Shown here piece after piece: positions 1-17,440 of a stretch of DNA of 20,000 nt. Below the pieces are notes generated by a model. That model made no database searches and was not told where the DNA came from. It saw nothing but the letters and a program-made list of their open reading frames with translations. The translations under genes were made by a program, and so were the position numbers. Every line of letters begins with the position of its first letter. Within the stretch, counting starts at the first letter, position 1. Source of the DNA: an uncultured virus (IMG/VR IMGVR_UViG_3300021091_000050) (taxonomy: Duplodnaviria; Heunggongvirae; Uroviricota; Caudoviricetes); the IMG/VR virus record IMGVR_UViG_3300021091_000050; one strand, written 5' to 3'.

Positions 1-3000
1 TCTAAATTTATCTTTAAACTTCCCAATAGCCTCACTAAGACTATTGATAACTTTATCAAAGAAATTAGCTTTTAATGCTTTTGCTCCCTCGTCAATCGCC
101 TCAGCAATTGTTATACCTCTAGCAGTAGCCTGAGATGGTGTTTGTGCATCTGGTTTTTTATCTTTTCCTCCGACATCTTTGCCAATTCCTTTGCCTATGG
201 TTTCTGCGGTTTTTAAGCCACTGATCCAGTCTTTTATACCCCTACCAATACCAACAACCCAATCACTCGCACTCCCTATGGCATCCATAGTGCTGTTTGC
301 AACGCTATCAACACCACCAAGAATTTTATCTTGAATATTCTTTAAAACGTCATCCCCCATTTCGGTAATATCTCTAATAGAACCAAGAACTGCTTTAACT
401 CCATTACCTATACCCTCAGTTACGGCTATCGCTTTCTCTTCTGCGGTTTCCAGACCAGAGTTAAGTCCGCTAGTTGCTTCATTTGCGATACCTTTCACTG
501 AATCGCCAACTTTTTCAAAAATATTTCCTATTGCATCAGCTGGTTTTGCCAGGATATCAACAGCCATACCAACAAGGCTATCCAAACCAATTTTGTCATA
601 AAACCATCCAAGTCCAAAACCCAATTTCTTTGGTAAATCAACAAGAATTGTTCTTAAAAATTCAGCAAACATTTCTGCCATTTTTTGAAGAATCTTTCCC
701 CATCCAGAAATCAATCCGCCAAAAATACCTACCAATTTACCGACTAATGTTATTGCCCCACCAGTTAATGTAAACAATGCTTTAATCATCAACTGTACGG
801 ATTCTTTGATCAAATCAACAAGTGCTTTTTGTAGATTTGTCCATATCCGTACAACTTCTTGGACTAGCGCAACAACAGCTCTTGGTATTGCAAAAAATGC
901 ATTAATAATTCCTTTGAGTAAATATTGAATAACAATTATTACAGCATCTGCCATTCTTTCAAATATATTTGTTATTAGACCAAGAACTTTAAATACAATA
1001 TCAATTAAGAATATAAATGGAGTTTTAAATATTGTAATTAAACCTGTAAATACCTTACTTGCTGCTTCTTTCATTCCATCGAAAGCTTTACCCATAGCCT
1101 TCTTGGACTCCTCTCCACCGCCCTTGAAATAACCAATAAGATTTCTTATGAACTGAATTATTGGACCAATAAATCCAATAATTCCCTTAACTGCCAGAGA
1201 TACACCGCTCAAAACTCTTCTGATCACTGGTTCAAGAGTCTTTTCAAAGAAGGCTTTAAATTTCTCAGTAAATGCCAAAACTTTTTCAGAAATTGAACCA
1301 ACGACTTGTCTTATGTTTTCACCACCATCTTTTGCATCTTTAGCACCACTGCCAAACAAAGAAGCAAAGAAGTCTTTAAAGACTCCGACAAGAACTCCAA
1401 AGATAGCTTTAATATTTTCAAAAGCGGCTTTAAAGTTATCCATAATATTTTGGGCTTTACCACCCATATTCTCAAATGTCTTTTTAAGAACCATTATTGC
1501 AAGCGCAATTGCTGTAATTATAATCAATATTGGAGCACTAACCTTAGAGAATCTTTGCATCAATCCAATTACTTTATTCATAGGACCGGCAAGAAGCATT
1601 CCTGCTGGGCCAAGTTGATAGGTGAGCATGCTCGCCATAGAACCGCCCATTCTGATGGCTCCCTTAAATGCCTTCCCAACCCCACCCATTGTCTTTCCAA
1701 TCATTCCAGCGCCGCGAGATGTCGTACCGTCTTGATTTGTAATAACATCTCTTCTGAAGAGACCCTTCTTTGTTATAGTGCTTCCATTTGCGCCTTCAAC
1801 TGTTCTTGCTTGACCGCCGACCCCGAACAACCCTTGCGTGACTGCAAATACTGGTCTTGTAATTGCCCGACCAGCGGCTTTAAGAGGAACTGCAGCAACC
1901 CTGCCAGCAGCTAGTGCAATCTCCTTAGCACCGTTCGCTAGAACCTTCCCAGCAGCCGTCAAACCCCTTCCAGCCATATTTAAAGCTTCTTTTGGATCAG
2001 TGAACGCTTTATGGATAAATTTAGCTGTATTTGAACCAGCAACCAGTAAACCGCCAACCCCTAGTTGCAACATCTGGACTGTCTTGAGGAATACCTGTCC
2101 AGCTTGTGTATTCTGAATAAAATCAAGACCGCCAAGAGCAATGAATATTTTTTTAGCAGTGTTTACAACTTGTGGCATAACTGACTGAATCTGTGCGCCT
2201 GCTGCTATTAAACCTTTCGCCATTATGATTGTAGAAGTAACTGGCGATTTGATAATTTCTTTTTCAATTTGATAAGCAGTCTTTATCATCTTTTTACCAA
2301 TTGAAATTGTTGTAGTTTTAGCAGTCTCCATTGCATTCAGTATGGGAGGACCATAAAGGTTTCCAATTGCCTGAATGTTATCTTTAATTGGAATAAGTTT
2401 CATTGCAAACTTTGATGGAATTACCCCAACAACTTTAGAGAGTCTTGTTATTGGAGCAAATAAGAGACTCTCTGCTTTAGCAATTTGTCTTGCTTCAATT
2501 TCTGTTTTTCTTATCTGCCTAGAGGAACTTGCTGGACCAATACCTCTTTCTTTTTCAACTCTTGCTTTCGCCATTTCATAGCGTTCTCTTGGATTTAATG
2601 CATATCTAACTTGCTGAGCATCTGTGCCAATTTTTTTAGCAATAATATTCTTTAACAAAACGGCAATTTCGCTAAGTCCGCCAGTTGCAACAGCAGATCC
2701 AACTCTTGCAACACCTCTTCCTGTTATTGGGATGCCAGCAATTTCACGAACTTTTGGTGTAGGTGGTACATATTTATCTTTACTTGGGCGTGGTGGGATA
2801 AGAGCCTTAAGTTGATCAAAACTACTCATACCCATTGCAATAGGGGTTAGACCAGACGTTCCTGCTGCCGCAGCAGCAAGCTTGGCTTCTGCTGCAGCCC
2901 TTCTTGTGTTTGTCCAAACTGGATTTATTGTGGAGATGCTTGCTCGCTCAGCCAAATTGCGAACACGATCACGGACTGTCTTTAATTCATTTGTAGCACT

Positions 3001-6000
3001 TACTGAATCAAGAAGCTTTTTACGCAAAAGATCTGCAGCATTAACATACACTGGTCCAGATGGGGGCTTCGCTGCATTTTCTTCCATAAGTTTTTTCAAA
3101 CTTGCTGGGGTTAATATTGGCTGTTGTGGAATAGCAGATGATGGAACATCTCGCTCAGGGGGTGAAGCCTGTGGGGTTGTTGTTGTGGGTTTTGGAGCTC
3201 TTGGAAGTTGAGGAATAGCTGGAGTTGTTTGAGCTGCGGCTTGTGTTGCTTTTTCTATTGGTTTAACTGCTACTTGTTGAATTGCAACATCTGTTGCAAC
3301 CCCGAGTTCAGAAAGTTTGTCAATAATAATTTTCTTATAATCTTTTGCTTGTCTTTGTTTTCCTGTCTCGTCTCTAGTTTTTGCACCAGCTACATACTCT
3401 GCAAGATATCTTAATTCTTGAACTGTATATTGTTTTAATGAATCCATGCTTGCGCCATATACTTTAACTTGTTCAGCGACCTGCTGCATTCTTGCTCTTA
3501 TTTGTTCTCTTGTTTCTCCAGCAACTTTAGTAGTTGTTTCTTTTGGAGTTATTGGTATAACTTTTCCTTTATTAGGACCAAATTGAGGCGTGACCTGTCC
3601 AGCAGCCTGCTCGCCAAATTTCTGTAATTTGGCTCTTTGTTGCATTACAGCAGCATAAAGTGATTCAAGACTTCCGTTTCCGGCAACAACTGTAGCCTTA
3701 ATTGCTTCTACGACTTTTGTAACATCACCTTTGACTTTTGAAATTGGAGCATCAAGACCTGCTGCTGCTTTTGGTGCTCTGTTTCTAAGTTCAGCAATAA
3801 GCGCTTCAAATTGTTTAGCTGGTAAATTAAGAGTAGCTTGAAGTTGCTGAAGAACTGTATCAAAACCAAATGCTCCACCGCTAATTTTTGGAAGACTAGC
3901 TAGAGCTTTTGCTTGTGCTTGTTCCATTTCAGCTTCTAATTTAGTTTTTACTTTTGAAAGAATGCCTATTTGCTTTTTATATCCTTTACCTTTAACTTCA
4001 CCAAGTCTATTTATTTCAGCTATTAATTCTTGAATTTGTTCTTCAAATTCATTAACTTGTTTTATCAAAGCCCTTCTTTGAGCAGTATCAAGTTTTTCTA
4101 AACCCTTTTGCGGAACTGGTCTTGTAGAAGCAGCAGGCATTGGATAACCGCCGAGGGCTCGTGGTTTTATTGGCTTTGGAGTAGGAGCTTCTCCAACAAC
4201 TTTTATAGCCGCTTGCGCTTCTGTAAGTTCTTTCCTACCTAAACTAATTTCTTCATCAATTTTTTTTATTTCTTTTTTTAAAGAAAGAATTTGTTTTTCT
4301 CGTGCAGACATTGTTGCTTTTAATTTTTCTTTAGCCTCAGTAGCTTCATCTTTTGCAACAATCGTTTGTTCTTTCAATTTAACATCGGCAGCAGTATGTG
4401 TTACCTGTTTAGCTAGACTAGCTAAAGTTGCTTTTCCTTCTTCTATTGTTAAAAGCAGTTCCGTTTCTTTGCCTTGTTCTTTTCTTTGTATACTTTCAAG
4501 TTTATGCAAAGTTGCAATTTTTTTTGTATGTTCTGCTTCTGATTTTCCTATTGCTGCAGCAATTTTATTAATATTTTTTAATGTCTCACCGACAAGAATT
4601 TTCGCAGCAACAGGTCTTGCTGCTACCATTGCTGATTTGATTAAACGATCATATGTCGCTCTTTGTTTTTTATTTAAAGAAGCAATTTTTTGTTCTATTG
4701 CTTTATCTTGAGCAACAGTATCTAATTCTTCAAATGCTTCTGGTTCTTTAATCTTACCCAATTGTTCTAAAAGCTCAATTTTTCTTTCTCTGACTAATTT
4801 ATTAATTGTTTCTGTTAATTTATCTTCTGGTATTACAATTGGTGCAAACTGTGCAGACGTAGCAAGTGGCAAATCAGTGTCGTATGGGCTTATCTTTGGG
4901 CCTGTTGGTACTGTCGGTATTTTTGGATATGCACCTAATTCTTCTTCGTGTGATGCATAAGGTGAATATTGTCGACTTGCCATAGGCAATGTTGGCTTTA
5001 TTTCTTTTTGTCTATTTAATATACTAAATAATTTATTCCTTGATTCTGTTGTATACGGAGTAAGTTGTTGTTTAGTACTTACTCCAGTCTCTGGATTCTC
5101 CACCATCTCGAATGGTGTTCTTATTTGCTCAAAAGCTATTCTAAGCTGTCTTCTAGCTGAAGAAACACCTTCAGCAACGCGATCCATGCGTTCTCTTAAT
5201 GGAGCAAGTCTTGCTCTAATTACTGAATCAATAACAACTTCAGAAGCAGTTGGCATTGATGCAATAACTTTTTGTATAACTCGTTGAACTTCTAAATCAA
5301 GTTTTTTCTGAAGGCCTTCATAATATTTTAATTTTTTACGAAGACCTGTAACAATTCGGGCATGCATTTTCCCTTCAACAGCAGTCATCTCTCTTGGAGG
5401 CACACCTTCTTCTGCAGGTTTGCCTTCTATCATTTCTTTTTCATATTTTGCATCAGCTGTTGCTTGTCTTGCTGTTGTGTGTCCTAAAGCTGCAAATAAA
5501 GGATTAAGATAGGTTGCTGATCTGATATTAAGAGCTGTTTTCTGTCCACCAGCAAATGCGTTTAGCCTTTCTTGTGCGCCAGCACCAGAAAGTGATCTTT
5601 TAAGTGTTTCAAAAGTTCTTTTTTGTATAGAAACTGCAAAGTCACTCATTTGTGCGACAGTAGAGGGTATCTCAAGCCCAAGGTTTGTTAGCAATTCAAT
5701 AAAAGATTGTTTTGTAAGTTTAATTTTTTTAGAAACAGATACAGCAGTTTTCTTAGCTTCAGATACTTTTGTTTCTGTTTCTTTGGCAACGGTTTCTGCT
5801 TGTTTAATATCATTTGATGCCTGTTGAGCAACTTGATTTTGAGAAGATGTTGCTTGAGTTGCAGCAGGTACAAGTGGTGCTGGTTGTGTTGTTGCTGCTG
5901 CTTTGGTCTGATTTTTAGATTGTGCAACAGCCGTTGGAGATGCTGTTATACCTAATTTACGTCTTTGGGCAGAATTGGCTATTTCTTGATCTCTTTCGGC

Positions 6001-9000
6001 TTTCCTTGCGACAACAAAAGGAATCGATCCAAACATTCCACCCATACGACGCTGCGCTTGTGCGGCAAAATTTTTGAAGTCCATCACGTCGAAAGCGAGA
6101 TCTTTTAGATTTTTTAGCGTAGATGGCAAAATTTTTGAAGTAACTCGTTCGACAGCCTCTGCTACTTGTGGAATTGCTGGTCTTAATGGTCTTTTTCTTG
6201 TTCTTGTTCCACTAGAAGCATTCTGTCCGCCTCCTGTGGGTTGTGGTGCTGGTTGTGTTGTTGTTGGCTGTGCTGGTCTAGAAGTCGTTGTCTGCTGAGC
6301 TGGAGGTGCGTTTGGCTGAGAAGGCTGTCCTGGTCTTGTACCCGTTCCTGTATTGACAACACGCCCAGGACTGCAAATACACTTTTGAATTGCCTGAAGA
6401 ATTGCCATTAACTTTGTATAATATTGGGCAGATACTGGTTTTTGCTGTCCAGTTGTTCTTGTCGTAGCTGTTGCTTGCCCCGCAGAAGAAGTTGAAGGTG
6501 TTTTAACAACACCAAATGGTGTTATAATACCGCCTGCTGCTGAATTTGCTCCAACCCTTGGAGTTAAGCTGCTTGTTTTCTTAGATGCTCTTTGTGTAGC
6601 TTTAATTACGGCTTCATTCATTCCTTTAATCAGGTCTATTGTGTATTGCTCAATGACCTTTGCTGGATTTTGTAAATTCCGTGTAGCGGTGACAGTACTT
6701 GCATCCAAGCCCGAAAGGTTTGCCGACCCAGTAGGTAACACCATCTGATCGAGGGGGCCAGCCTGTGTGCCCCTTTTTGCTGCAACTGTATTTGCAGCCT
6801 GAACTCTTAAATATTCTTTTCTGCCAACTAAACCTTTAATTGATTTTTGATATATTGATTTTTCAGCAAAAGAAATTTTTTCTCCAGCATCAATTTTTTC
6901 TTGAATTGGGGCGGCTCTTTCCAGTCTCTTTAAATTTGCTTTAGAAACAAAAATATTTCCATCTTTCCCAACTTTTCTAAAATTTCCTCCTAATCTTGTA
7001 AGAAGGCTTGTAGATTCTGCAATTGTTCCATTTAAAGAAACCATATCATCTTTAAATTTTAATACACCCTTAGAACGCATCATTGAGAAAGAACCAGCAA
7101 TTTGAGCAATAGCACCAAAAGTCCTAAGAACAGGGCCAAGTGTTGCAAGAAGAATCAAAACAACACCAATAAGTTTCTTGGTTCCCGATGGGAGGAGCTG
7201 AATCCATGTACTAATTTTTTCAAGAATTGGATTAATTGCTGAAAGCAAATCACCAAATACAATCGTTAGCTCTCTTGCTATTGATTTAATACTTTCTCTT
7301 GACCGACCATAACGAACTTGCAAAGAGCCTTGAACCCTTTCTAGCTCTGCTTCTAATGTCTCTTTCGTAACAGCAGTTCCAAACATTGCTCCAGATAATA
7401 TTTTTCCAGACTCAGTTTGAATTGAATCAAAGCGTGTGCCAAAAAGAGTATTTCCCTTTTCTACTTCTTTATTGTACCCTTTTGTTTCACTTGTTATATT
7501 TTTAAGTCTTTTAACCTCGGCTTCTTGAGCTTTTTGAATAATTAAAGCTCTTGCAGTAAAGGCCCCATCTTTATCCTTTTCTTGAGATTGGCCTATTACA
7601 TCCTGTATATCTTTAATTTTATTCAGTTGGACAAGTTCAACTTGTTGTCCTTCAGTAGTCCTACCTCTTTGGCTATTTAGTCTTAGTTGAGCATTAATTT
7701 GTTTTTCAAGATCTTTTGCCAATTTGTTTTCAGCAGAACCAACTTTGTCTAATGATTGCTGGTATTCAGACATTTGCTTAATTGAAACTTCCATTCTTGG
7801 GCCCTGGCGAACACCAAACAGTTCCGCAAAGAATGTCAGAGCACCCGCATCGCCCAGTTTGTCTTGAAGTTTTGTATAACCATCAATTAAGTCCTGAATG
7901 CCCTCGGAACCAACTTTTGTTGAAAGACGAAAATCTTTTCCGAGAACCCTTGTCAATGCTTTAATGATGTCTTGATTCTTTTTGGTTGGGGCAATAAGTC
8001 TTTGTAATGAAACTTTAATTGAGTTTGCAGAAGCACCAACTTGGAACCCAGCACCAACCATTGGTGCCAATAAAGCCGCAGTTGTCTGCATATTTAAACC
8101 GAAAGATGTTGCTGCAGCAGAAACTTCTGGGAAAGCATCTGCCATGTCTTTCAAAGAAAGAGTTGTCTTATTTTCAGCAAAGTTGAAGAATGCAATTGCA
8201 CCGCGAACTTCTTCAACCATTTGATTGATTGCTTTAGTCCCAGTAACTGCCAAACCTTGATCTCTTCTAACTCTTGCAATTTGTTGATAGATTGCTTGAA
8301 TTGCAGCTTGAGCTTGAGTAATGTCAACGTTACCAAGTTTTTCAAACTCAGCTGTAAATTGTGCAAGGTTCGCTAGTGCTTTAGGATCTGAAATACCAAT
8401 TTCGGCAAAATCTCCTGCAAGACCCTGTACAAGTTCTCTTGAGACACCCCAACTAATTGATAGTTTATCTAATCTAGTATCAAGTTCTGCCATAGCAGCG
8501 TTATATGCCTTGATACCATCTGCTCCTGTTGAGAAACTATCTGCGATAAGCTTCCCTGTTCTTATGACTTCTTTATCAAGAGCTTTTAATGATTGGAAAC
8601 CTGTACGAAGGAACATCGATATGGGGAGAGAAAGACCATATGTCATTCTCATTCCCGCATAAGATAATGTTTGAGCACTCTTATTGAATTTCTTACCCAA
8701 CTCATTAAAATTCATTGCTCTTTGAGTATTAGTTAACTCTTTTTGCATTGCATTTACACTTTCAAGTTGGGACTTGTAAGCTTTCAATGGACCTGTGTTA
8801 AAACCAGTTTTTGTACTTAATCCGTGTCTACGATTTGCTGATTCTAATTGTTTAATAGAAATTTCAAGCTGCGCTATCGTTGTTTTATTTTTTTTGAATG
8901 CAGCATCAAGACCAGCTAGGTCTGCTTTTGCTTTAGAAAAAGAGGCGGACAAACCTCTGCCTTCCTTGGAAATTTGATTAAGAGTCCTTGAGATTGCGCC

Positions 9001-9150
9001 GCCACTAGAATTAGCAGCTCTTTGTGATCTATTAAAGCCATTAATGCTTGCAATGGTTTGCAACATTGAGCGCTGCATCCCAGCCATCGCGTTTTCAAAT
9101 GCTCTGTCAATTATGGCATTTACAGTTACATTTGCATTTGCACTCGTCAT
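1..9150 (-). CDS. Tail tape measure protein, >3,050 aa, 3' end outside the window
   Basis: ATG at 9150 (MTSANANVTVNAIIDRAFENAMAG...). The frame is still open at base 1 (...INSLSEAIGKFKDKFR); I found no in-frame stop on reading it, which fits its absence from the ORF track. TP901-type TMP core near 7980-8200 (LSLKDMADAFPEVSAAATSFGLNMQTTAALLAPMVGAGFQVGASANSIKVSLQRLIAPTK). Hydrophobic segments near 7130-7180 and 1490-1540, with amphipathic helical repeats at ~500-1480. Lies directly after the chaperone pair. Confidence 0.93.
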   Translation of the reverse strand, partial: MTSANANVTVNAIIDRAFENAMAGMQRSMLQTIASINGFNRSQRAANSSGGAISRTLNQISKEGRGLSASFSKAKADLAGLDAAFKKNKTTIAQLEISIKQLESANRRHGLSTKTGFNTGPLKAYKSQLESVNAMQKELTNTQRAMNFNELGKKFNKSAQTLSYAGMRMTYGLSLPISMFLRTGFQSLKALDKEVIRTGKLIADSFSTGADGIKAYNAAMAELDTRLDKLSISWGVSRELVQGLAGDFAEIGISDPKALANLAQFTAEFEKLGNVDITQAQAAIQAIYQQIARVRRDQGLAVTGTKAINQMVEEVRGAIAFFNFAENKTTLSLKDMADAFPEVSAAATSFGLNMQTTAALLAPMVGAGFQVGASANSIKVSLQRLIAPTKKNQDIIKALTRVLGKDFRLSTKVGSEGIQDLIDGYTKLQDKLGDAGALTFFAELFGVRQGPRMEVSIKQMSEYQQSLDKVGSAENKLAKDLEKQINAQLRLNSQRGRTTEGQQVELVQLNKIKDIQDVIGQSQEKDKDGAFTARALIIQKAQEAEVKRLKNITSETKGYNKEVEKGNTLFGTRFDSIQTESGKILSGAMFGTAVTKETLEAELERVQGSLQVRYGRSRESIKSIARELTIVFGDLLSAINPILEKISTWIQLLPSGTKKLIGVVLILLATLGPVLRTFGAIAQIAGSFSMMRSKGVLKFKDDMVSLNGTIAESTSLLTRLGGNFRKVGKDGNIFVSKANLKRLERAAPIQEKIDAGEKISFAEKSIYQKSIKGLVGRKEYLRVQAANTVAAKRGTQAGPLDQMVLPTGSANLSGLDASTVTATRNLQNPAKVIEQYTIDLIKGMNEAVIKATQRASKKTSSLTPRVGANSAAGGIITPFGVVKTPSTSSAGQATATTRTTGQQKPVSAQYYTKLMAILQAIQKCICSPGRVVNTGTGTRPGQPSQPNAPPAQQTTTSRPAQPTTTQPAPQPTGGGQNASSGTRTRKRPLRPAIPQVAEAVERVTSKILPSTLKNLKDLAFDVMDFKNFAAQAQRRMGGMFGSIPFVVARKAERDQEIANSAQRRKLGITASPTAVAQSKNQTKAAATTQPAPLVPAATQATSSQNQVAQQASNDIKQAETVAKETETKVSEAKKTAVSVSKKIKLTKQSFIELLTNLGLEIPSTVAQMSDFAVSIQKRTFETLKRSLSGAGAQERLNAFAGGQKTALNIRSATYLNPLFAALGHTTARQATADAKYEKEMIEGKPAEEGVPPREMTAVEGKMHARIVTGLRKKLKYYEGLQKKLDLEVQRVIQKVIASMPTASEVVIDSVIRARLAPLRERMDRVAEGVSSARRQLRIAFEQIRTPFEMVENPETGVSTKQQLTPYTTESRNKLFSILNRQKEIKPTLPMASRQYSPYASHEEELGAYPKIPTVPTGPKISPYDTDLPLATSAQFAPIVIPEDKLTETINKLVRERKIELLEQLGKIKEPEAFEELDTVAQDKAIEQKIASLNKKQRATYDRLIKSAMVAARPVAAKILVGETLKNINKIAAAIGKSEAEHTKKIATLHKLESIQRKEQGKETELLLTIEEGKATLASLAKQVTHTAADVKLKEQTIVAKDEATEAKEKLKATMSAREKQILSLKKEIKKIDEEISLGRKELTEAQAAIKVVGEAPTPKPIKPRALGGYPMPAASTRPVPQKGLEKLDTAQRRALIKQVNEFEEQIQELIAEINRLGEVKGKGYKKQIGILSKVKTKLEAEMEQAQAKALASLPKISGGAFGFDTVLQQLQATLNLPAKQFEALIAELRNRAPKAAAGLDAPISKVKGDVTKVVEAIKATVVAGNGSLESLYAAVMQQRAKLQKFGEQAAGQVTPQFGPNKGKVIPITPKETTTKVAGETREQIRARMQQVAEQVKVYGASMDSLKQYTVQELRYLAEYVAGAKTRDETGKQRQAKDYKKIIIDKLSELGVATDVAIQQVAVKPIEKATQAAAQTTPAIPQLPRAPKPTTTTPQASPPERDVPSSAIPQQPILTPASLKKLMEENAAKPPSGPVYVNAADLLRKKLLDSVSATNELKTVRDRVRNLAERASISTINPVWTNTRRAAAEAKLAAAAAGTSGLTPIAMGMSSFDQLKALIPPRPSKDKYVPPTPKVREIAGIPITGRGVARVGSAVATGGLSEIAVLLKNIIAKKIGTDAQQVRYALNPRERYEMAKARVEKERGIGPASSSRQIRKTEIEARQIAKAESLLFAPITRLSKVVGVIPSKFAMKLIPIKDNIQAIGNLYGPPILNAMETAKTTTISIGKKMIKTAYQIEKEIIKSPVTSTIIMAKGLIAAGAQIQSVMPQVVNTAKKIFIALGGLDFIQNTQAGQVFLKTVQMLQLGVGGLLVAGSNTAKFIHKAFTDPKEALNMAGRGLTAAGKVLANGAKEIALAAGRVAAVPLKAAGRAITRPVFAVTQGLFGVGGQARTVEGANGSTITKKGLFRRDVITNQDGTTSRGAGMIGKTMGGVGKAFKGAIRMGGSMASMLTYQLGPAGMLLAGPMNKVIGLMQRFSKVSAPILIIITAIALAIMVLKKTFENMGGKAQNIMDNFKAAFENIKAIFGVLVGVFKDFFASLFGSGAKDAKDGGENIRQVVGSISEKVLAFTEKFKAFFEKTLEPVIRRVLSGVSLAVKGIIGFIGPIIQFIRNLIGYFKGGGEESKKAMGKAFDGMKEAASKVFTGLITIFKTPFIFLIDIVFKVLGLITNIFERMADAVIIVIQYLLKGIINAFFAIPRAVVALVQEVVRIWTNLQKALVDLIKESVQLMIKALFTLTGGAITLVGKLVGIFGGLISGWGKILQKMAEMFAEFLRTILVDLPKKLGFGLGWFYDKIGLDSLVGMAVDILAKPADAIGNIFEKVGDSVKGIANEATSGLNSGLETAEEKAIAVTEGIGNGVKAVLGSIRDITEMGDDVLKNIQDKILGGVDSVANSTMDAIGSASDWVVGIGRGIKDWISGLKTAETIGKGIGKDVGGKDKKPDAQTPSQATARGITIAEAIDEGAKALKANFFDKVINSLSEAIGKFKDKFR

Positions 9151-11481: not shown

Positions 11482-11861
11482 GATGTTTCTACCACCTTTC
11501 TGATGGTAGCCAGTATGTGATGTTTTTTGCCATTGAAACCAAATTTTGGTTGTATTGAAACAATCTCAAAAGGTCCAATTTCAAGGACATTGCCATATCT
11601 ATCTTTTATATTTTGTATTCTATTTTGATAATCAATATTATCTGCATACATTCCTGGAACAATCATTTCATGAATTGCAATAAATTCTTGGTAAGGAACT
11701 ACTCTTTTATCACTGCCAGATGCTTGAGGGGATTGAATATTGATTGGAACAGTTGCAGAAAGAGTAAAAGTAAAAGTCTTCTGCCCCGCTGCACTAATTA
11801 CAGTTTGCTTTGTATATATATCAGCAGTTTGTGAAAACCGTAAAAAACTCTTGTATGCCAT
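11478..11861 (-). CDS. Putative head-closure/stopper protein (SPP1 gp16-like), 127 aa
   Basis: Beta-rich (FSQTADIYTK...AGQKTFTF...FEIVSIQPKFGFNGKKHHILATIRKV); follows the connector gene. Confidence 0.6.
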   Translation of the reverse strand: MAYKSFLRFSQTADIYTKQTVISAAGQKTFTFTLSATVPINIQSPQASGSDKRVVPYQEFIAIHEMIVPGMYADNIDYQNRIQNIKDRYGNVLEIGPFEIVSIQPKFGFNGKKHHILATIRKVVETS

Positions 11862-12787
11862 CAGACCACATAATCCATCACAAACAAGGTATAGTCCATT
11901 AAGAGGACATCGGCTTCAATATTGCCTGTAGACTCATAAAAAGAATCTTTCATTTTCATCTTGACAATATCTATATCAATAGAATAAATGCCATGCCTTC
12001 TGTATTCAGAGTCGTCATTCATTAAATCAGCAATAATTAATTCTGCTGCTTGCTGAACATTCAATGGAACAGAATTCCAGCCAAAATTACCCTCAATTTT
12101 ATAATCAGACCTCAATCTAAATTTTGTAGGTACAGTTAATTTATCTGCTTTATCAATTGCATCAGCTTTAAATCTTATATAATAAGAGGCTTCAAAGTTA
12201 AAAGGTTGTTTAACTCTCTCAATATTCTGTGATGAAGATGTTGTTGAATCATAAACAATTTCAGCATAATCTTTACCAGGATCTTGTGTCACTTTTGTAA
12301 GTGTACTTATTGCAAATGGCAAGTGTAAAATATTATGATTATTACCATCAATCGTAAGACTTTTATTTGGGTAGTAGTCAAATGACTGCCCACAGTGTGT
12401 ATTAATTATTGCTCTAGATTTTCTTTCATATTTATCAAATAAAGCACCTTTTGATTGCTGAAGTTCTGGATACATCGTAAAAAAATCTGATGAAGTTATG
12501 TAGGGGGTGTAAACATTTATATAGGCAGATTTTGTATAAGATGTGCCCGATACAGTAAATGTAAAATCAATTCTATGTTTACCCGCTGAATTTAAAATAT
12601 AGTTTCCACTGGCTTGCTGGCCATATGTAATTGTGTAAACCCCTTCCGAAGCTCTGGTTGCACCAGTTGGACCAGAAACAAGATCACCAAACTCATGATA
12701 AAGAGAAGCGCTAACAGTATTCCCAGCAGGGTCACTCGGAAGTGTGAGTGTGACTGTCTTTGATGTATTAATTTTTACTTCATCCAT
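11861..12787 (-). CDS. Head-tail connector/adaptor (SPP1 gp15/HK97 gp6-like) with an extra N-terminal beta-sandwich domain, 308 aa
   Basis: The C-terminal two thirds carry adaptor-type motifs (PYITSSDF, SRAIINTHCGQSF, GNFGWNSVPLNVQQAAELII). The N-terminal ~95 aa is an Ig-like beta pattern (GVYTITY...AGKHRIDFTFTVSG). Confidence 0.7.
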   Translation of the reverse strand: MDEVKINTSKTVTLTLPSDPAGNTVSASLYHEFGDLVSGPTGATRASEGVYTITYGQQASGNYILNSAGKHRIDFTFTVSGTSYTKSAYINVYTPYITSSDFFTMYPELQQSKGALFDKYERKSRAIINTHCGQSFDYYPNKSLTIDGNNHNILHLPFAISTLTKVTQDPGKDYAEIVYDSTTSSSQNIERVKQPFNFEASYYIRFKADAIDKADKLTVPTKFRLRSDYKIEGNFGWNSVPLNVQQAAELIIADLMNDDSEYRRHGIYSIDIDIVKMKMKDSFYESTGNIEADVLLMDYTLFVMDYVV

Positions 12788-14150: not shown

Positions 14151-14425
14151 TAATAATTTCCTCCATCAACAAGTAAATTAGCAGCAGAGTGAACATGATC
14201 TGATCTGCTTGCTATTATTGCTGTTCCAGCGCTTGCGGTCCTGGCAATATTCGCTGGTGCTGAATCACTGTAACTTAGGCTTGCTGTATTAATTGTAGCA
14301 GGTGCAGCAGTTAAAACAGTAGTATCGGATGTTTGAATCACGACTGTTGCTACATCAGAAGCGCCAATTGTAAGCTGTGTTATATCACCGCTTGTAACAG
14401 TTATTTCAGTTATTTCACCCGCCAT
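14150..14425 (-). CDS. Small virion structural protein, 91 aa
   Basis: Start re-assigned to the ATG at 14425 (MAGEITEITV...) behind GGGAG; contains the fibre-type motif ASRSDHVH; ends VDGGNY; TAATG-coupled to the next gene. Confidence 0.65.
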   Translation of the reverse strand: MAGEITEITVTSGDITQLTIGASDVATVVIQTSDTTVLTAAPATINTASLSYSDSAPANIARTASAGTAIIASRSDHVHSAANLLVDGGNY

Positions 14426-14753
14426 CTGTAACATCTCCCTGTATCAGAGCCTTCCCTGCCACAAGGGTTGTCACAACTGCGCCATCTGTTTGTTGAAAAT
14501 CGTAATGGTATGTTCCAGGAATAATCGCTCCTGAAACATTGGAGGAAAGAACAAACTGGACGATTCCTCCAGCACCATTACTGATATTAACAGCAAAGTT
14601 AGCAACAATCTCTGTAGAAGATGGGGCAATTCTGATTTGTCCAGAAAAAGTTCTTTGAGAGATGTTGATAGCTGCATTAGAACCGTCTTTTAATCTCAGT
14701 TCATGAACATAGGTATCACCAGAATAGATAGTAATATTCCTGCTGCCAGCCAT
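14415..14753 (-). CDS. Putative fibre adaptor protein (BppU N-terminal-like beta-sandwich), 112 aa
   Basis: The pattern NITIYSGDTY...FSGQIR...GGIVQFVLS...GTYHYDFQ...TTLVAGK is typical of small phage adaptor domains. Confidence 0.55.
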   Translation of the reverse strand: MAGSRNITIYSGDTYVHELRLKDGSNAAINISQRTFSGQIRIAPSSTEIVANFAVNISNGAGGIVQFVLSSNVSGAIIPGTYHYDFQQTDGAVVTTLVAGKALIQGDVTDGG

Positions 14754-14762
14754 AACAATTAA

Positions 14763-14791
14763 ATTTTATACGAAATAATATTCGTTATCAA
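14763..14791 (-). promoter_or_regulatory. Putative sigma70/sigmaA-type promoter, near-leaderless
   Basis: TTGATA (14791-14786) - 17 nt - TAAAAT (14768-14763) - 9 nt - ATG 14753; no Shine-Dalgarno. Confidence 0.6.
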
Positions 14792-14889
14792 CAATTGCAG
14801 TCTTCACAACCACAATTGCATTGTTCTGTGCATAGGCACCCACATGCACAACTTTTTATTTTAGAGTTTTCTAAGTTTTGATCGCTCAT
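14788..14889 (-). CDS. Cys-rich metallothionein-like peptide, 33 aa
   Basis: MSDQNLENSKIKSCACGCLCTEQCNCGCEDCNC*: 9 Cys in the last 20 residues, all in CxC arrays, with no aromatic residues. Its ATG overlaps the endolysin stop (ATGA), it ends in a TGA TAA double stop, and it fills the intergenic gap exactly. Confidence 0.75.
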   Translation of the reverse strand: MSDQNLENSKIKSCACGCLCTEQCNCGCEDCNC

Positions 14890-15389
14890 TTTGGAATAGA
14901 TTTCCAAGCGGCAACAAGTTTCTTAGGATTATCAGCCATTTCTGGAGAAAGCTCTACATGGATCCACTTACCGCCCTGTGAGCCTGCATTGTCTTTAGAA
15001 TTATAAATCTTGACACCTTTTGCACCTTCACCACGTGAGCAACGATAACCTCTCCCCCAGCCGAGTTCCTTGTCATTTACGTTACTATCGTAAGCATAGT
15101 CATGAATCTCTTCGATACCCAAAACTTCTGTGTTTGCGAGCAAGAAATTCCAAGCTTCTTCAGCTTTCTTCCGATCTGAATAGCCCATATCAATGGCTCG
15201 GCCTGTGGCGTGAACTGATAACCACTTTGGATCTCCAGGAGTAGCTTTAGGATTGTTCATGCTCCTATTTGCCCAAATTCCCAAAGAAGAAAAGCCCCAA
15301 CGATTCTTGCAAATTTCTAATAGTTTCTCTGTTCCTGGTCTCGCACCTTTAGCAAGGCCATCTGTATTACCTGTATATTTTCTTGGCAT
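14886..15389 (-). CDS. Putative endolysin, zinc peptidase of the M15/D-Ala-D-Ala peptidase (Hedgehog/DD-peptidase) fold, 167 aa
   Basis: SVHATGRAID matches SxHxxGxAxD, and a downstream WIHVE supplies the third Zn ligand; GGAGG RBS; next to the holin-like gene; no obvious cell-wall-binding domain. Confidence 0.8.
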   Translation of the reverse strand: MPRKYTGNTDGLAKGARPGTEKLLEICKNRWGFSSLGIWANRSMNNPKATPGDPKWLSVHATGRAIDMGYSDRKKAEEAWNFLLANTEVLGIEEIHDYAYDSNVNDKELGWGRGYRCSRGEGAKGVKIYNSKDNAGSQGGKWIHVELSPEMADNPKKLVAAWKSIPK

Positions 15390-15418: not shown

Positions 15419-15667
15419 TTATTTTGCATTTGATTGCCCTCTATCGGGGCCATTAAAAATTTGATCAATTTCATCAGCATCAAGTTTGCCATCATCAAGA
15501 AACGCCTCAGCAAGGCCTTGAACGACTTTTGCAACACCGCCGATTCCTGCCATAAAAATTGCTTTAGGAAGATCGACCCCAGCGATTGCACCTGCGCCGA
15601 TCACTCCAAGCCCAGAGGCTCCAAACACAGCAAGAATTCTTAACAATATATTTTTCATATTATTCAT
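15419..15667 (-). CDS. Holin-like membrane protein, 82 aa
   Basis: Two hydrophobic Gly/Ala-rich helices and an acidic C-terminal tail; AGGAG RBS; immediately upstream of the endolysin. Confidence 0.6.
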   Translation of the reverse strand: MNNMKNILLRILAVFGASGLGVIGAGAIAGVDLPKAIFMAGIGGVAKVVQGLAEAFLDDGKLDADEIDQIFNGPDRGQSNAK

Positions 15668-15836
15668 TATCTTCTCCTTGTAAAATTAAAGCGCCAATCA
15701 AATGCACAGCAAGAGATGCGACGCTAATCCAAATTCCCCATTTCCTTGTCTGGCCTGACAAAGTAATAAGAACAAGACCTGTTCCACCCAATGTCCAAGC
15801 CAGGGCGTGAAGTTCACTAATTAATTTTTTAATCAT
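15660..15836 (-). CDS. Small 2-TM membrane protein, 58 aa (not in the ORF track)
   Basis: MIKKLISELHALAWTLGGTGLVLITLSGQTRKWGIWISVASLAVHLIGALILQGEDNE*; TAATG overlap with the upstream gene and an 8-nt overlap with the holin-like gene. Confidence 0.8.
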   Translation of the reverse strand: MIKKLISELHALAWTLGGTGLVLITLSGQTRKWGIWISVASLAVHLIGALILQGEDNE

Positions 15837-17440
15837 TATTTCCTCCTGCTTCCTCCACCAGATGTGCTGGTCGAAGAAGTTGAAATGTTGACAGTAGAAA
15901 GAGCAGCGGCTGCTGCGACAATTACCCGTCTTGTTCCGACATTTACGGCTGAGCCTGTTGGTACATATTCATCGAATGCATCACTTCCATAAATATCAAT
16001 TTCTTTTTCAAATGCTTCCTTAACTTTGTCAGATGCTTGAGAAAGATTTAAGGCAATTTCTTTTAATTCTATTTTACTAAATTCATCAAAGTTAATTTCT
16101 GCGAATACTTCTTGGATCTCAGATCCGCTTAATTCATCAATTGCTGTATTGTCAATAATACTAACTAACTCACTAGAGTTAATTGTACTTAAATCTACGT
16201 TATTAATAACATTTTTTAGTTCCTCTGGGGTGCTGGCTTCCGCTATAACATTTTCTATAGGCTTAGAGGGTTGAATTGTCGTTGTCGTATTTATAAAAGC
16301 CACAGAGGTCGTTGTCGCGGGAATGGTGGTGCTTGTCGTGGTCGTTGTTGGCTCTGGAATCGTCGTTCTGGCAACCGAAGTTGTCGTTCTTGGGGTTGGT
16401 GCCAAAGTTGTAGAAGTTGTTGTCGTTGTTAATTGAGTTGTTGTAGTTTCAGGTATAATTGTAGTATTAGGTAATTCAGATGTTGTCGTGGATTCAGGAA
16501 CAGTTGTTGGAAATATTGTCGTTTCCACTATAAGCTGTGTGGTTGTCGTAGTTAATACTTCTGTTGTGGTGGTAATAGGCTGCTGAGTTGTTGTTGTGGG
16601 TGGCAACGTAGTAGTTGTCGTAGTTGTAGTAGTAGTTGTCGTAGTCGTGGGTGGAGTAGGGTCAATCACCACAGCATTAACAGTTGTCTGGGGGCCGTAC
16701 ATACAAGACCCAGCACCCTCTCCGACACATGGGGCTGTCCCTGCTTGAATCTTAAATCTAACTGGTCCGTATCCAGTTGTTCCAGGCCACATCCACGGAC
16801 CGAGACTATATGAAGTGTTCACGGCATATGTCCACACTCCCCAACCACCAGTTTCCACCCCATCAACGAGGTCATAAAACAAAATGTTGTACATATATGG
16901 GGCAGTGTTGCTCGGCGTTGGGGCATCCCAGTCCAAAACAACATTCCCATCGTTGTCTGCTACCGCTGTTAGATTTTGAACAGAGTTAAAGTATGGTGCT
17001 ATCGTTGTAGTTGTAGTACTTGTGGTTGTTGTAGTTGATGTTGTCGTTGTTGAACCCGTTGAAATACTTGTGGGCACAACATTTGTTTCCACAACATAAC
17101 TCCCGCCTTGCCAAGCATTTGGATTTCCACAACAAATACCTGTTCGTAAACGATAATTTCCTGGTTGTAAATTTATTTCAATAAATGAGTCGAGTCCAAA
17201 CCAATCGTCATTGGCTGCAATTTGTTGGTTTTGAGAATTATATAACCACAACATTGAGTCAATGCCATATTGTTGAGCATATGTTCGTACAGTCAATTGT
17301 TGTAACTGTGTTATTCCAAAATATAAATCGGAAGCGCCAGTGACCGTATAGACATCAGCTTTTGCGGGTGATGCAAAAAAAGAAAGAAACAGAGCAGGTA
17401 ATATTATCCAAAAACCTTTTCTTAATTTTATTTTTCTCAA
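15836..17440 (-). CDS. Secreted/surface mucin-like Thr-rich protein with PPC-like and FN3-like domains, 534 aa
   Basis: TTG start behind GGTGA. Domain order: Sec signal peptide (MRKIKLRK-hydrophobic-SPAKA|D); PPC-like motif (DSMLWLYNS...IAANDD...DSFIEINLQPGNYRL); FN3-like motif (VQNLTAVA...VVLDWDAP...Y); ~130-aa Thr/Pro stalk; acidic helical region; weakly hydrophobic C-terminus ending SRRK. Confidence 0.8.
   Translation of the reverse strand: MRKIKLRKGFWIILPALFLSFFASPAKADVYTVTGASDLYFGITQLQQLTVRTYAQQYGIDSMLWLYNSQNQQIAANDDWFGLDSFIEINLQPGNYRLRTGICCGNPNAWQGGSYVVETNVVPTSISTGSTTTTSTTTTTSTTTTTIAPYFNSVQNLTAVADNDGNVVLDWDAPTPSNTAPYMYNILFYDLVDGVETGGWGVWTYAVNTSYSLGPWMWPGTTGYGPVRFKIQAGTAPCVGEGAGSCMYGPQTTVNAVVIDPTPPTTTTTTTTTTTTTTLPPTTTTQQPITTTTEVLTTTTTQLIVETTIFPTTVPESTTTSELPNTTIIPETTTTQLTTTTTSTTLAPTPRTTTSVARTTIPEPTTTTTSTTIPATTTSVAFINTTTTIQPSKPIENVIAEASTPEELKNVINNVDLSTINSSELVSIIDNTAIDELSGSEIQEVFAEINFDEFSKIELKEIALNLSQASDKVKEAFEKEIDIYGSDAFDEYVPTGSAVNVGTRRVIVAAAAALSTVNISTSSTSTSGGGSRRK

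Follow-up and report, generated by a model that had tools for sequence, protein, structure and literature searches.

A conserved nine-cysteine micro-gene at the end of a phage lysis cassette: a candidate metallothionein-like peptide

An M(II)3Cys9 cluster is built from nine cysteine ligands; the beta-domain of vertebrate metallothioneins has nine Cys, and the fungal Cu-thioneins are 25–26 amino acids (aa) long. Extra His metal ligands occur in some bacterial metallothioneins, and many accepted metallothioneins break the rule of few aromatic residues and few His. MymT, a small Cu(I) metallothionein of mycobacteria (about 53 aa), uses His, is cellular and metal-induced, and was overlooked by annotation. 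Excerpts of PMC4292183 and PMC9917255 describe the alternation of acidic residues and Cys in phytochelatins and in synthetic (Glu-Cys)n-Gly peptides, and an excerpt of bioRxiv 10.1101/834739 describes polycysteine leaderless short open reading frames (ORFs) of mycobacteria. Here we describe a micro-ORF of 33 codons, nine of them for Cys, in a stretch of 20,000 nucleotides (nt) from an uncultured virus of the Caudoviricetes (IMG/VR record IMGVR_UViG_3300021091_000050; this whole stretch is hereafter called the window). The micro-ORF follows the gene of a 167-aa endolysin at the end of the lysis cassette and precedes the gene of p1084, a fibre-anchor protein.

An initial annotation of the window had proposed that this ORF starts in the stop codon of the lysin gene, is translationally coupled to it, has a metallothionein-like make-up and is routinely missed by gene calling. 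The ORF is present as described (Table 1), and its ATGA overlap with the lysin gene points to translational coupling; all genes of the window lie on the minus strand. The encoded peptide, MSDQNLENSKIKSCACGCLCTEQCNCGCEDCNC, carries its nine Cys at positions 14, 16, 18, 20, 24, 26, 28, 31 and 33, i.e., all within the last 20 residues, in the core C-x-C-G-C-x-C-x-E-Q-C-x-C-G-C-E-x-C-x-C. Both its size and its Cys content are of the metallothionein type (9 Cys in 33 aa, or 27%, in C-x-C arrays; the relatives described below are mostly 23–31 aa long, with up to 39% Cys). The absence of aromatic residues that had been pointed out holds for the window peptide, which also lacks His, and does not extend to the family. 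No hydrophobic stretch suggestive of a signal peptide, a lipobox or a transmembrane segment can be read from the sequence, which sets the peptide apart from spanins and other membrane lysis accessories; a start with M-F-I/F is found only in a marine subfamily. The micro-gene is shorter than common gene-calling cut-offs and the exact 33-aa sequence was not found among about 15 billion predicted proteins, as expected of a gene that is commonly missed. A search of the window against Rfam gave no match.

The phage peptide shares with the vertebrate beta-domain and the fungal Cu-thioneins its tiny size, its C-x-C arrays and its high Cys content; however, it has no sequence homology to metallothioneins, is acidic rather than Lys-rich, is phage-encoded and stands at the end of a lysis cassette. 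Like MymT, it is the product of a small Cys-rich ORF that escaped annotation in an actinobacterial context, but a profile search found no sequence similarity between the two, and the phage ORF would be expressed late in infection. Cores such as C-D-C-G-C-E-C-x-E-x-C-D-C-G-C-E-E-C-D-C resemble an alpha-linked (Asp/Glu-Cys)n chain, and the chemistry expected, by analogy with phytochelatins, is that of an acidic chelator rich in thiols. Phytochelatins are products of an enzyme and contain gamma-Glu bonds, whereas the phage peptide is ribosomal and has a fixed Cys spacing with x3 and x2 breaks and two C-G-C turns. It is also, as in the part of the mycobacterial study cited above, a short Cys-dense ORF heading the next cistron, in surroundings of actinobacterial type; unlike the polycysteine ORFs, its own sequence is selected, its Cys are spaced and its neighbours are unrelated to cysteine metabolism.

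Twelve stop-free frames of the window contain at least six Cys per 20 residues, two of them with nine Cys, and such chance frames are mostly antisense to Thr/Ala-rich genes. Since similar frames arise by chance in the same window, Cys-richness alone proves nothing; it is by its conservation that the micro-ORF rises above chance. Conservation was assessed by searches led by the neighbouring genes, with no Cys criterion, over 80 loci collected by lysin homology and over the best 80 of 308 p1084 relatives collected by profile. The micro-ORF was found directly behind the lysin gene in 8 of the 80 lysin-homologue loci and directly before the p1084 gene in 25 of the 80 p1084-homologue loci. All 33 copies have the nine Cys in register, and no partial or decayed copy was found at any locus of these searches. 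Non-Cys positions vary among the same copies (for example, Asp can replace the first Gly, and Tyr or Lys the Gln). The viral record nearest to the window (G001) has the same ORF.

DNA pattern scans extended the family. A strict pattern retrieved 34 viral loci, and a looser one, in which the Cys, one Gly, one Glu and the stop were fixed, retrieved 58 viral and 50 metagenome loci (108 in all); every match is a short ORF that terminates immediately past the last Cys. Among these 108 loci there are 51 different peptides (mostly 23–33 aa; 43 distinct cores and 55 distinct nucleotide cores), with the common ending C-x-C-x-C-x-C-x3-C-x-C-G-C-E-x-C-x-C-stop (Cys at core positions 1, 3, 5, 7, 11, 13, 15, 18 and 20; 27–39% Cys). 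The first Gly of the two C-G-C motifs is retained in 34 of the 43 distinct cores; the second is invariant, as is the C-G-C-E near the C-terminus, an invariance at the Cys, the second Gly and the Glu that is unbiased only in the 33 context-led copies. Freshwater forms add a conserved [KR]-x-K lead-in. The remaining core positions are mostly Asp or Glu, the peptide is strongly acidic, and His occupies core position 10 in 10 of the 43 cores. In two metagenome loci (L346 and L348) the same position holds a tenth Cys (…C-T-E-C-C-E-C-G-C…); the other variants there are Gln, His, Tyr, Asn and Lys.

Codon-level selection was computed on 22 nucleotide variants. In the frame of the micro-ORF the proportion of synonymous differences (pS) is 0.76, i.e., saturated, and that of nonsynonymous differences (pN) is 0.17. 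The ratio of nonsynonymous to synonymous rates (dN/dS) over the 11 non-Cys core codons is 0.23, and the other five frames give 0.31 to 3.1. Both TGT and TGC are used at each of the nine Cys codons. The start of the micro-ORF either overlaps the upstream stop (offsets -4 or -1) or follows it after 5–12 nt (offsets +5, +9 and +12). Non-overlapping copies have AGGAG or GGAGG 5–7 nt 5' of the ATG, and at the +9 and +12 offsets the micro-ORF is preceded by a Shine-Dalgarno site of its own. A HMMER profile search of 1.84 billion representative proteins returned four matches, all of 29–44 aa with the same nine Cys and none of them a longer or fused form; the sole name recorded around them is 'hypothetical protein', on another member of one match's cluster. 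The peptide gave no tblastn match in cultured phages at E up to 10, a search in which the low-complexity filter may hide some matches. With a Cys-only pattern in bacterial genomes, the matches listed (at least 521, at least 124 loci) comprised only simple repeats or unrelated frames; six survived filtering and none is peptide-like. Taken together, these data make it very probable that the micro-ORF is a real gene, and the Cys conservation and selection expected of one by the initial annotation were both found. That the peptide might extend the lysin at its C-terminus, through frameshifting or readthrough, was also considered and rejected, because the frame relation to the lysin gene varies and 13 longer lysin homologues have no Cys tail; nor did the profile search return a fused form.

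Seven lysin loci that are devoid of the peptide (L002, L003, L032, L064–L067) have a frame of 22–23 codons with 4–6 Cys that overlaps the lysin stop (ATGA; GTGA in L032). This frame overlaps, in a different register, the beginning of the membrane-protein gene that follows, and its sequence changes non-conservatively; it is probably not a gene.

The genes within 200 nt of the peptide ORF were then surveyed in 84 loci, 34 viral and 50 metagenomic. Upstream lies a LAS lysin of the window type in 53 loci, the same type with a PG_binding_1 domain in two, a VanY-type LAS lysin in five, a PG_binding_1 protein with 28% identity to VanY in two and a lysin combining an Rv2525c-like glycosidase with PG_binding_1 in one. 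In 16 loci the upstream gene is staphylococcal-nuclease-like; in one it encodes a 58-aa membrane protein, in two nothing was recognised and in two the contig ends. Downstream, the fibre-anchor gene (p1084) is present in 56 loci and an adaptor-like gene, with the fibre module missing, in 15; nothing was recognised in 12 and the contig ends in one. There are thus five kinds of lysin or a nuclease upstream and three states downstream, and the 58 viral loci fetched with 4-kb flanks show the same architectures. The constant feature is the position: the peptide gene is the last small gene after the holin-like genes, the lysin gene and sometimes the nuclease gene, just before the first virion gene. 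The placement at the end of the lysis cassette, which the initial annotation had noted in the window, is borne out. The possibility that the peptide belongs to the fibre-anchor gene was entertained because p1084 lies downstream in 34 of 34 strict-pattern loci; it was dropped when the wider scans gave the 15 adaptor-like loci and the 12 with nothing recognisable.

The 16 nuclease loci fall into five from freshwater, in four of which a lysin gene precedes the nuclease gene within the fetched flank, and 11 that belong to the marine subfamily. Members of this subfamily (L402:3992-4060(+), L323, L331, L335, L341 and others; an example is MFICGCHCDCTDNCECGCERCDC) are 23 aa long, start with M-F-I/F and end with C-G-C-E-R-C-D-C. 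Their ORF overlaps by one base the stop of the staphylococcal-nuclease-like gene (PF00565, phrog_452), and neither a lysin gene nor a virion gene was recognised within 4 kb. Seven freshwater loci (L329, L338, L321, L337, L373, L381 and L406) have a 126-aa staphylococcal-nuclease-like gene between lysin and peptide, within the apparent lysis cassette. The lysin gene is directly upstream of the peptide gene in L103 and L109, and a gene for an 84-aa membrane protein lies between the two in L110.

Presence and absence of the peptide were compared with those of its neighbours. The peptide is absent from 72 of the 80 lysin-homologue loci and from 55 of the 80 p1084-homologue loci. In about 36 of these 55, counted by a shared C-terminal motif and confirmed by Pfam in two cases, a VanY + PG_binding_1 zinc lysin occupies the same position; in other loci a VanY-type zinc lysin replaces the lysin of the window type and the peptide is retained. 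Pairs of related loci show that both neighbours have been exchanged around the peptide gene. Between L082 and L088 the lysin is 35–85% identical, against 88–100% for the membrane-protein genes, the fibre module and the peptide gene; the peptide gene with its flanks is at 93–100%. Between L090 and L100 the fibre-anchor gene is 48–72% identical and the end of the lysin gene with the peptide gene 83–100%. In a p1084 tree (Biopython neighbour-joining, midpoint root, no support values) the peptide-bearing loci fall into two clades, which the peptide types follow. Because both neighbours vary or are exchanged, the peptide is probably not tied to a single neighbouring protein as its obligatory partner.

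The 167-aa lysin itself lies outside the curated families. At E up to 0.01 it has no counterpart in Pfam or PHROGs, the Peptidase_M15 and VanY models included, and it matched no PDB sequence, even by profile search, and nothing by tblastn in 50,697 cultured-phage records; 649 homologues were found in metagenomes at E 0.001 or better. An AF2 model of the protein (predicted local distance difference test, pLDDT, 83) was aligned by VIA-align to the zinc L,D-endopeptidase domain of VldE (chain 9flh) with a Z score of 10.4 and a root-mean-square deviation of 2.3 A over 101 of 107 residues, at 20% identity; Hedgehog-N, LysB4, MepA, 1lbu, Ply500, VanXYg and the T5 endolysin follow at Z 3.4–5.3. The top Foldseek matches of the model are VldE and LdcB (E 1.6e-3 and weaker). 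Residues H60, D67 and H144 (H-x6-D and a C-terminal His) are invariant across 33 lysin homologues and match H301, D308 and H375 of VldE in spacing and alignment offsets; in the part of PMC11667670 that describes them, these are the catalytic-zinc ligands of VldE. Given the fold match and the ligand triad, the protein is predicted to be a LAS-fold zinc peptidase although it is outside the curated families, in line with the M15-like zinc peptidase of the initial annotation. It shares the fold, H-x6-D and the C-terminal His with the VldE C-terminal domain and with other LAS or clan MD peptidases (LysB4, Ply500, T5 endolysin, MepA, VanY/LdcB). It differs from VldE in that the first His of H-x-H is Trp142 and in that, as read from the sequence, the His/Asp-rich extra-zinc (zinc-zipper) loop is missing. 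The lysin family is a candidate new family for the curated libraries, and would be useful to lysin catalogues since Pfam, PHROGs and PDB sequence searches miss it.

Because the neighbours vary, our preferred reading of the peptide is an independent buffer of metal or thiols at the end of the lysis cassette, metallothionein- or phytochelatin-like and expressed late, a reading to which we give about an even chance; that the peptide binds metal is rather probable. The nine Cys, alternating with Asp, Glu or Gly, would wrap a metal-thiolate cluster. This cluster could resemble that of the metallothionein beta-domain, holding about three Zn(II)/Cd(II) or a larger number of Cu(I); alternatively, the peptide could be a ribosomal (Glu/Asp-Cys)n analogue of phytochelatins. 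Coupling to the upstream gene would place its synthesis late and in amounts similar to the lysin, and it would then act alone in the dying cell, where it would buffer or sequester thiophilic metal, or buffer thiol redox. The chemistry of the family is consistent with this: a high proportion of Cys in C-x-C arrays, acidic non-Cys core positions and, in some cores, a His at position 10. What would be new is a phage-borne, acid-rich, metallothionein-like family, i.e., a known kind of molecule with a family and a position of its own; no phage-encoded metallothionein, endolysin metal partner or lysin metallochaperone was found in searches of open-access papers and bioRxiv. Should it bind metal, then phages that infect small freshwater bacteria would bring along a metal or thiol buffer of their own; this would be a further class of auxiliary gene, and metal supply could be linked to lysis in a testable way.

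Several points weigh against this reading. F, W, Y or H is present in 26 of the 51 distinct peptides. Four family peptides gave no match to Pfam metallothionein families at E up to 10, the only hit being the unrelated SEHBP (E 0.23). A language-model search for look-alikes (Atlas) gave a best score of 0.81 and, for a Metallothio_5 cluster, 0.75, both below the lead threshold, and the peptide is far more acidic than the classical Lys-rich metallothioneins. As to the counts, the Cys, the second Gly and the Glu were imposed by the patterns used in the scans, and locus counts do not equal independent lineages because viral and metagenome records overlap in origin. Finally, a peptidoglycan hydrolase lies directly upstream in 63 of the 84 loci; 60 of these are LAS by homology and two more are the unclassified PG_binding_1 proteins with 28% identity to a VanY lysin, which keeps some weight on a lysin-linked role.

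Such a role was the one put forward in the initial annotation: a peptide that serves the LAS zinc endolysin alone, as donor, buffer or chelator of zinc, and would load, activate or restrain the enzyme until lysis. It would agree with the ATGA coupling, with the predicted LAS fold and zinc triad of the lysin, with the mostly LAS hydrolases upstream, in architectures that recur in the 58 viral loci, and with the retention of the peptide when a VanY-type zinc lysin substitutes; moreover, since extra zinc can inhibit LAS enzymes according to an excerpt of PMC11667670, a zinc buffer could matter. However, the peptide is missing from nine tenths of the homologous-lysin loci (72 of 80) and from about 36 p1084 loci in which the VanY + PG_binding_1 zinc lysin is in place. 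Lysin alleles are swapped around a peptide gene that stays 93–100% identical, one lineage has the peptide behind the glycosidase-type lysin, and a nuclease gene separates lysin and peptide or replaces the lysin in the 16 nuclease loci, the marine subfamily having no lysin found within 4 kb; the extra-zinc loop of VldE is lacking as well. A role tied to the zinc lysin is thus not supported, and the co-occurrence with zinc-dependent lysins expected in the initial annotation holds for the 60 loci behind LAS types and not for the glycosidase and nuclease loci or for the many zinc-lysin loci without peptide. We consider a dedicated zinc-lysin partner doubtful. Equally doubtful is the wider proposal that a phage family of ribosomal metallothionein- or phytochelatin-like peptides, made with the lysis genes, controls thiophilic metal at the end of infection, for instance the zinc occupancy of LAS endolysins, by loading them or by removing inhibitory or catalytic zinc, and so tunes the timing and efficiency of wall cutting; if true, it would bring into the lysis cassette a metal-handling component new to any described one. 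A thiol chemistry devoid of any metal cluster, whether as redox buffer or antioxidant, as disulfide-knotted peptide released at lysis or as inhibitor of a host target, would suit nine invariant Cys in a strongly acidic peptide expressed late beside lysis genes and lacking homology to any metal-binding family. C-x-C arrays with Gly or acidic spacers nevertheless typify metal-thiolate binders and are poor for ordered disulfide knots, and the His recruited at core position 10 fits metal ligation; we judge this alternative unlikely.

On the downstream side, the peptide could be an assembly factor or a small component of the following virion module, with its p132-like fibre-anchor or adaptor-like protein. 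A virion gene does begin 0–34 nt downstream in 71 of the 84 loci (the 56 with p1084 and the 15 adaptor-like), the gap of 2–3 nt in many loci suggests coupled translation, the membrane-protein gene of L110 is inserted between lysin and peptide and not between peptide and p1084, and the peptide types track the two p1084 clades. Against this stand the absence of the peptide from 55 of the 80 p1084-homologue loci, the p1084 alleles swapped around an unchanged peptide gene (L090 and L100), the marine subfamily with no recognised downstream virion gene and, in the lineage of the window, the promoter-like site that separates the two genes; together these leave the proposal quite unlikely. Very improbable, in our view, is a Cys-codon-rich upstream ORF that senses the supply of cysteinyl-tRNA and gates the next gene, in the manner of the mycobacterial polycysteine leaders described in an excerpt of bioRxiv 10.1101/834739, even though a short Cys-dense ORF precedes the next start by 0–3 nt in many loci and the phage resembles those of actinobacteria. 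Purifying selection acts on the non-Cys residues (dN/dS 0.23), among which a Gly and a Glu never change and the [KR]-x-K lead-in is retained, the Cys have a fixed spacing and are not consecutive, gaps of 0–3 nt leave no room for an attenuator hairpin, and what follows is a virion gene or, in the marine subfamily, no recognisable gene. That the micro-ORF is merely a Cys-rich frame which arose by chance, between genes or where genes overlap, is scarcely credible: the window does hold equally Cys-rich chance frames, and the length is below usual gene-calling limits, but purifying selection is specific to this frame, with saturated synonymous sites that also argue against an overlapping element, start, stop and Shine-Dalgarno sites are conserved, and the 108 loci encode 51 distinct peptides.

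Table 1. Position of the micro-ORF and of neighbouring features in the window
Feature	Position	Strand	Detail or basis
Nine-Cys micro-ORF	14788..14889	minus	33 codons; stop TGA 14790..14788
ATGA overlap, micro-ORF start within lysin stop	14886..14889	minus	ATG 14889..14887, TGA 14888..14886
167-aa single-domain endolysin, predicted LAS-fold zinc peptidase	14886..15389	minus	predicted fold; invariant H60, D67, H144
82-aa two-helix membrane protein, holin-like	15419..15667	minus	phrog_26427 E 6.6e-21; phrog_443 holin E 0.0067
58-aa membrane protein, putative second small lysis-cassette gene	15660..15836	minus	phrog_29041 and synteny
Promoter-like site TTGATA, 17 nt, TAAAAT	14763..14791	minus	10/12 matches
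112-aa Ig-like protein p1084 (fibre-anchor gene)	14415..14753	minus	phrog_1084, phrog_3304; first gene of fibre module
308-aa head-to-tail-adaptor-like protein	11861..12787	minus	phrog_442, phrog_33253

The 82-aa membrane protein, retained upstream of the lysin in related loci, is a putative holin, and the 58-aa membrane protein probably also belongs to the lysis cassette. In PHROGs, phrog_26427 carries the label 'nuclease', which looks wrong for an 82-aa membrane protein; the DNA of this gene has a 72% blastn match to a record of an Actinomycetia phage.

The initial annotation had placed a promoter next after the micro-ORF. A promoter-like site does lie between its stop and the next ATG (14753), with the -35 box overlapping the stop, and it is retained in relatives with a gap of 32–34 nt and absent from those with a gap of 0–3 nt. 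However, the region contains 3 such sites against 3.9 expected from shuffles; since their number is not above shuffles, the match alone proves nothing, and the proposed promoter stands only as a promoter-like site.

The p1084 gene starts 34 nt downstream of the micro-ORF, and phrog_3304 is annotated 'L-shaped tail fiber protein assembly'. The model of p1084 is all-beta and Ig-like (pLDDT 91), with its best matches among baseplate and tail-tip chains of DT57C and T5 (8hqz_T, E 2.6e-9; 7qg9_L, E 3.6e-8). The T5 chain is one that we take to be the collar protein p132. The p1084 gene and the next ORF, of 94 aa (f94), overlap by 20 nt at 14415..14434(-), and the pair is retained in nearly all related loci. 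Fibre-like genes separate p1084 from the 308-aa adaptor-like protein, which is about 26% identical to proteins from phages of Streptomyces and Rhodococcus, some of them annotated as head-to-tail adaptor. The G+C content of the window is about 36–51%, and the host may be a freshwater actinobacterium.

Upstream of the membrane-protein genes, 15836..17440(-) encodes a 534-aa protein (Trich534) that begins with a signal-peptide-like segment and has long mucin-like stretches rich in Thr; in most related loci its homologues immediately precede the lysis genes. At the other end of the window, a single open frame of more than 3050 aa (1..9150(-)) runs off the window start; it lies downstream of a major-tail-like gene and may encode a tape measure or a giant structural protein.

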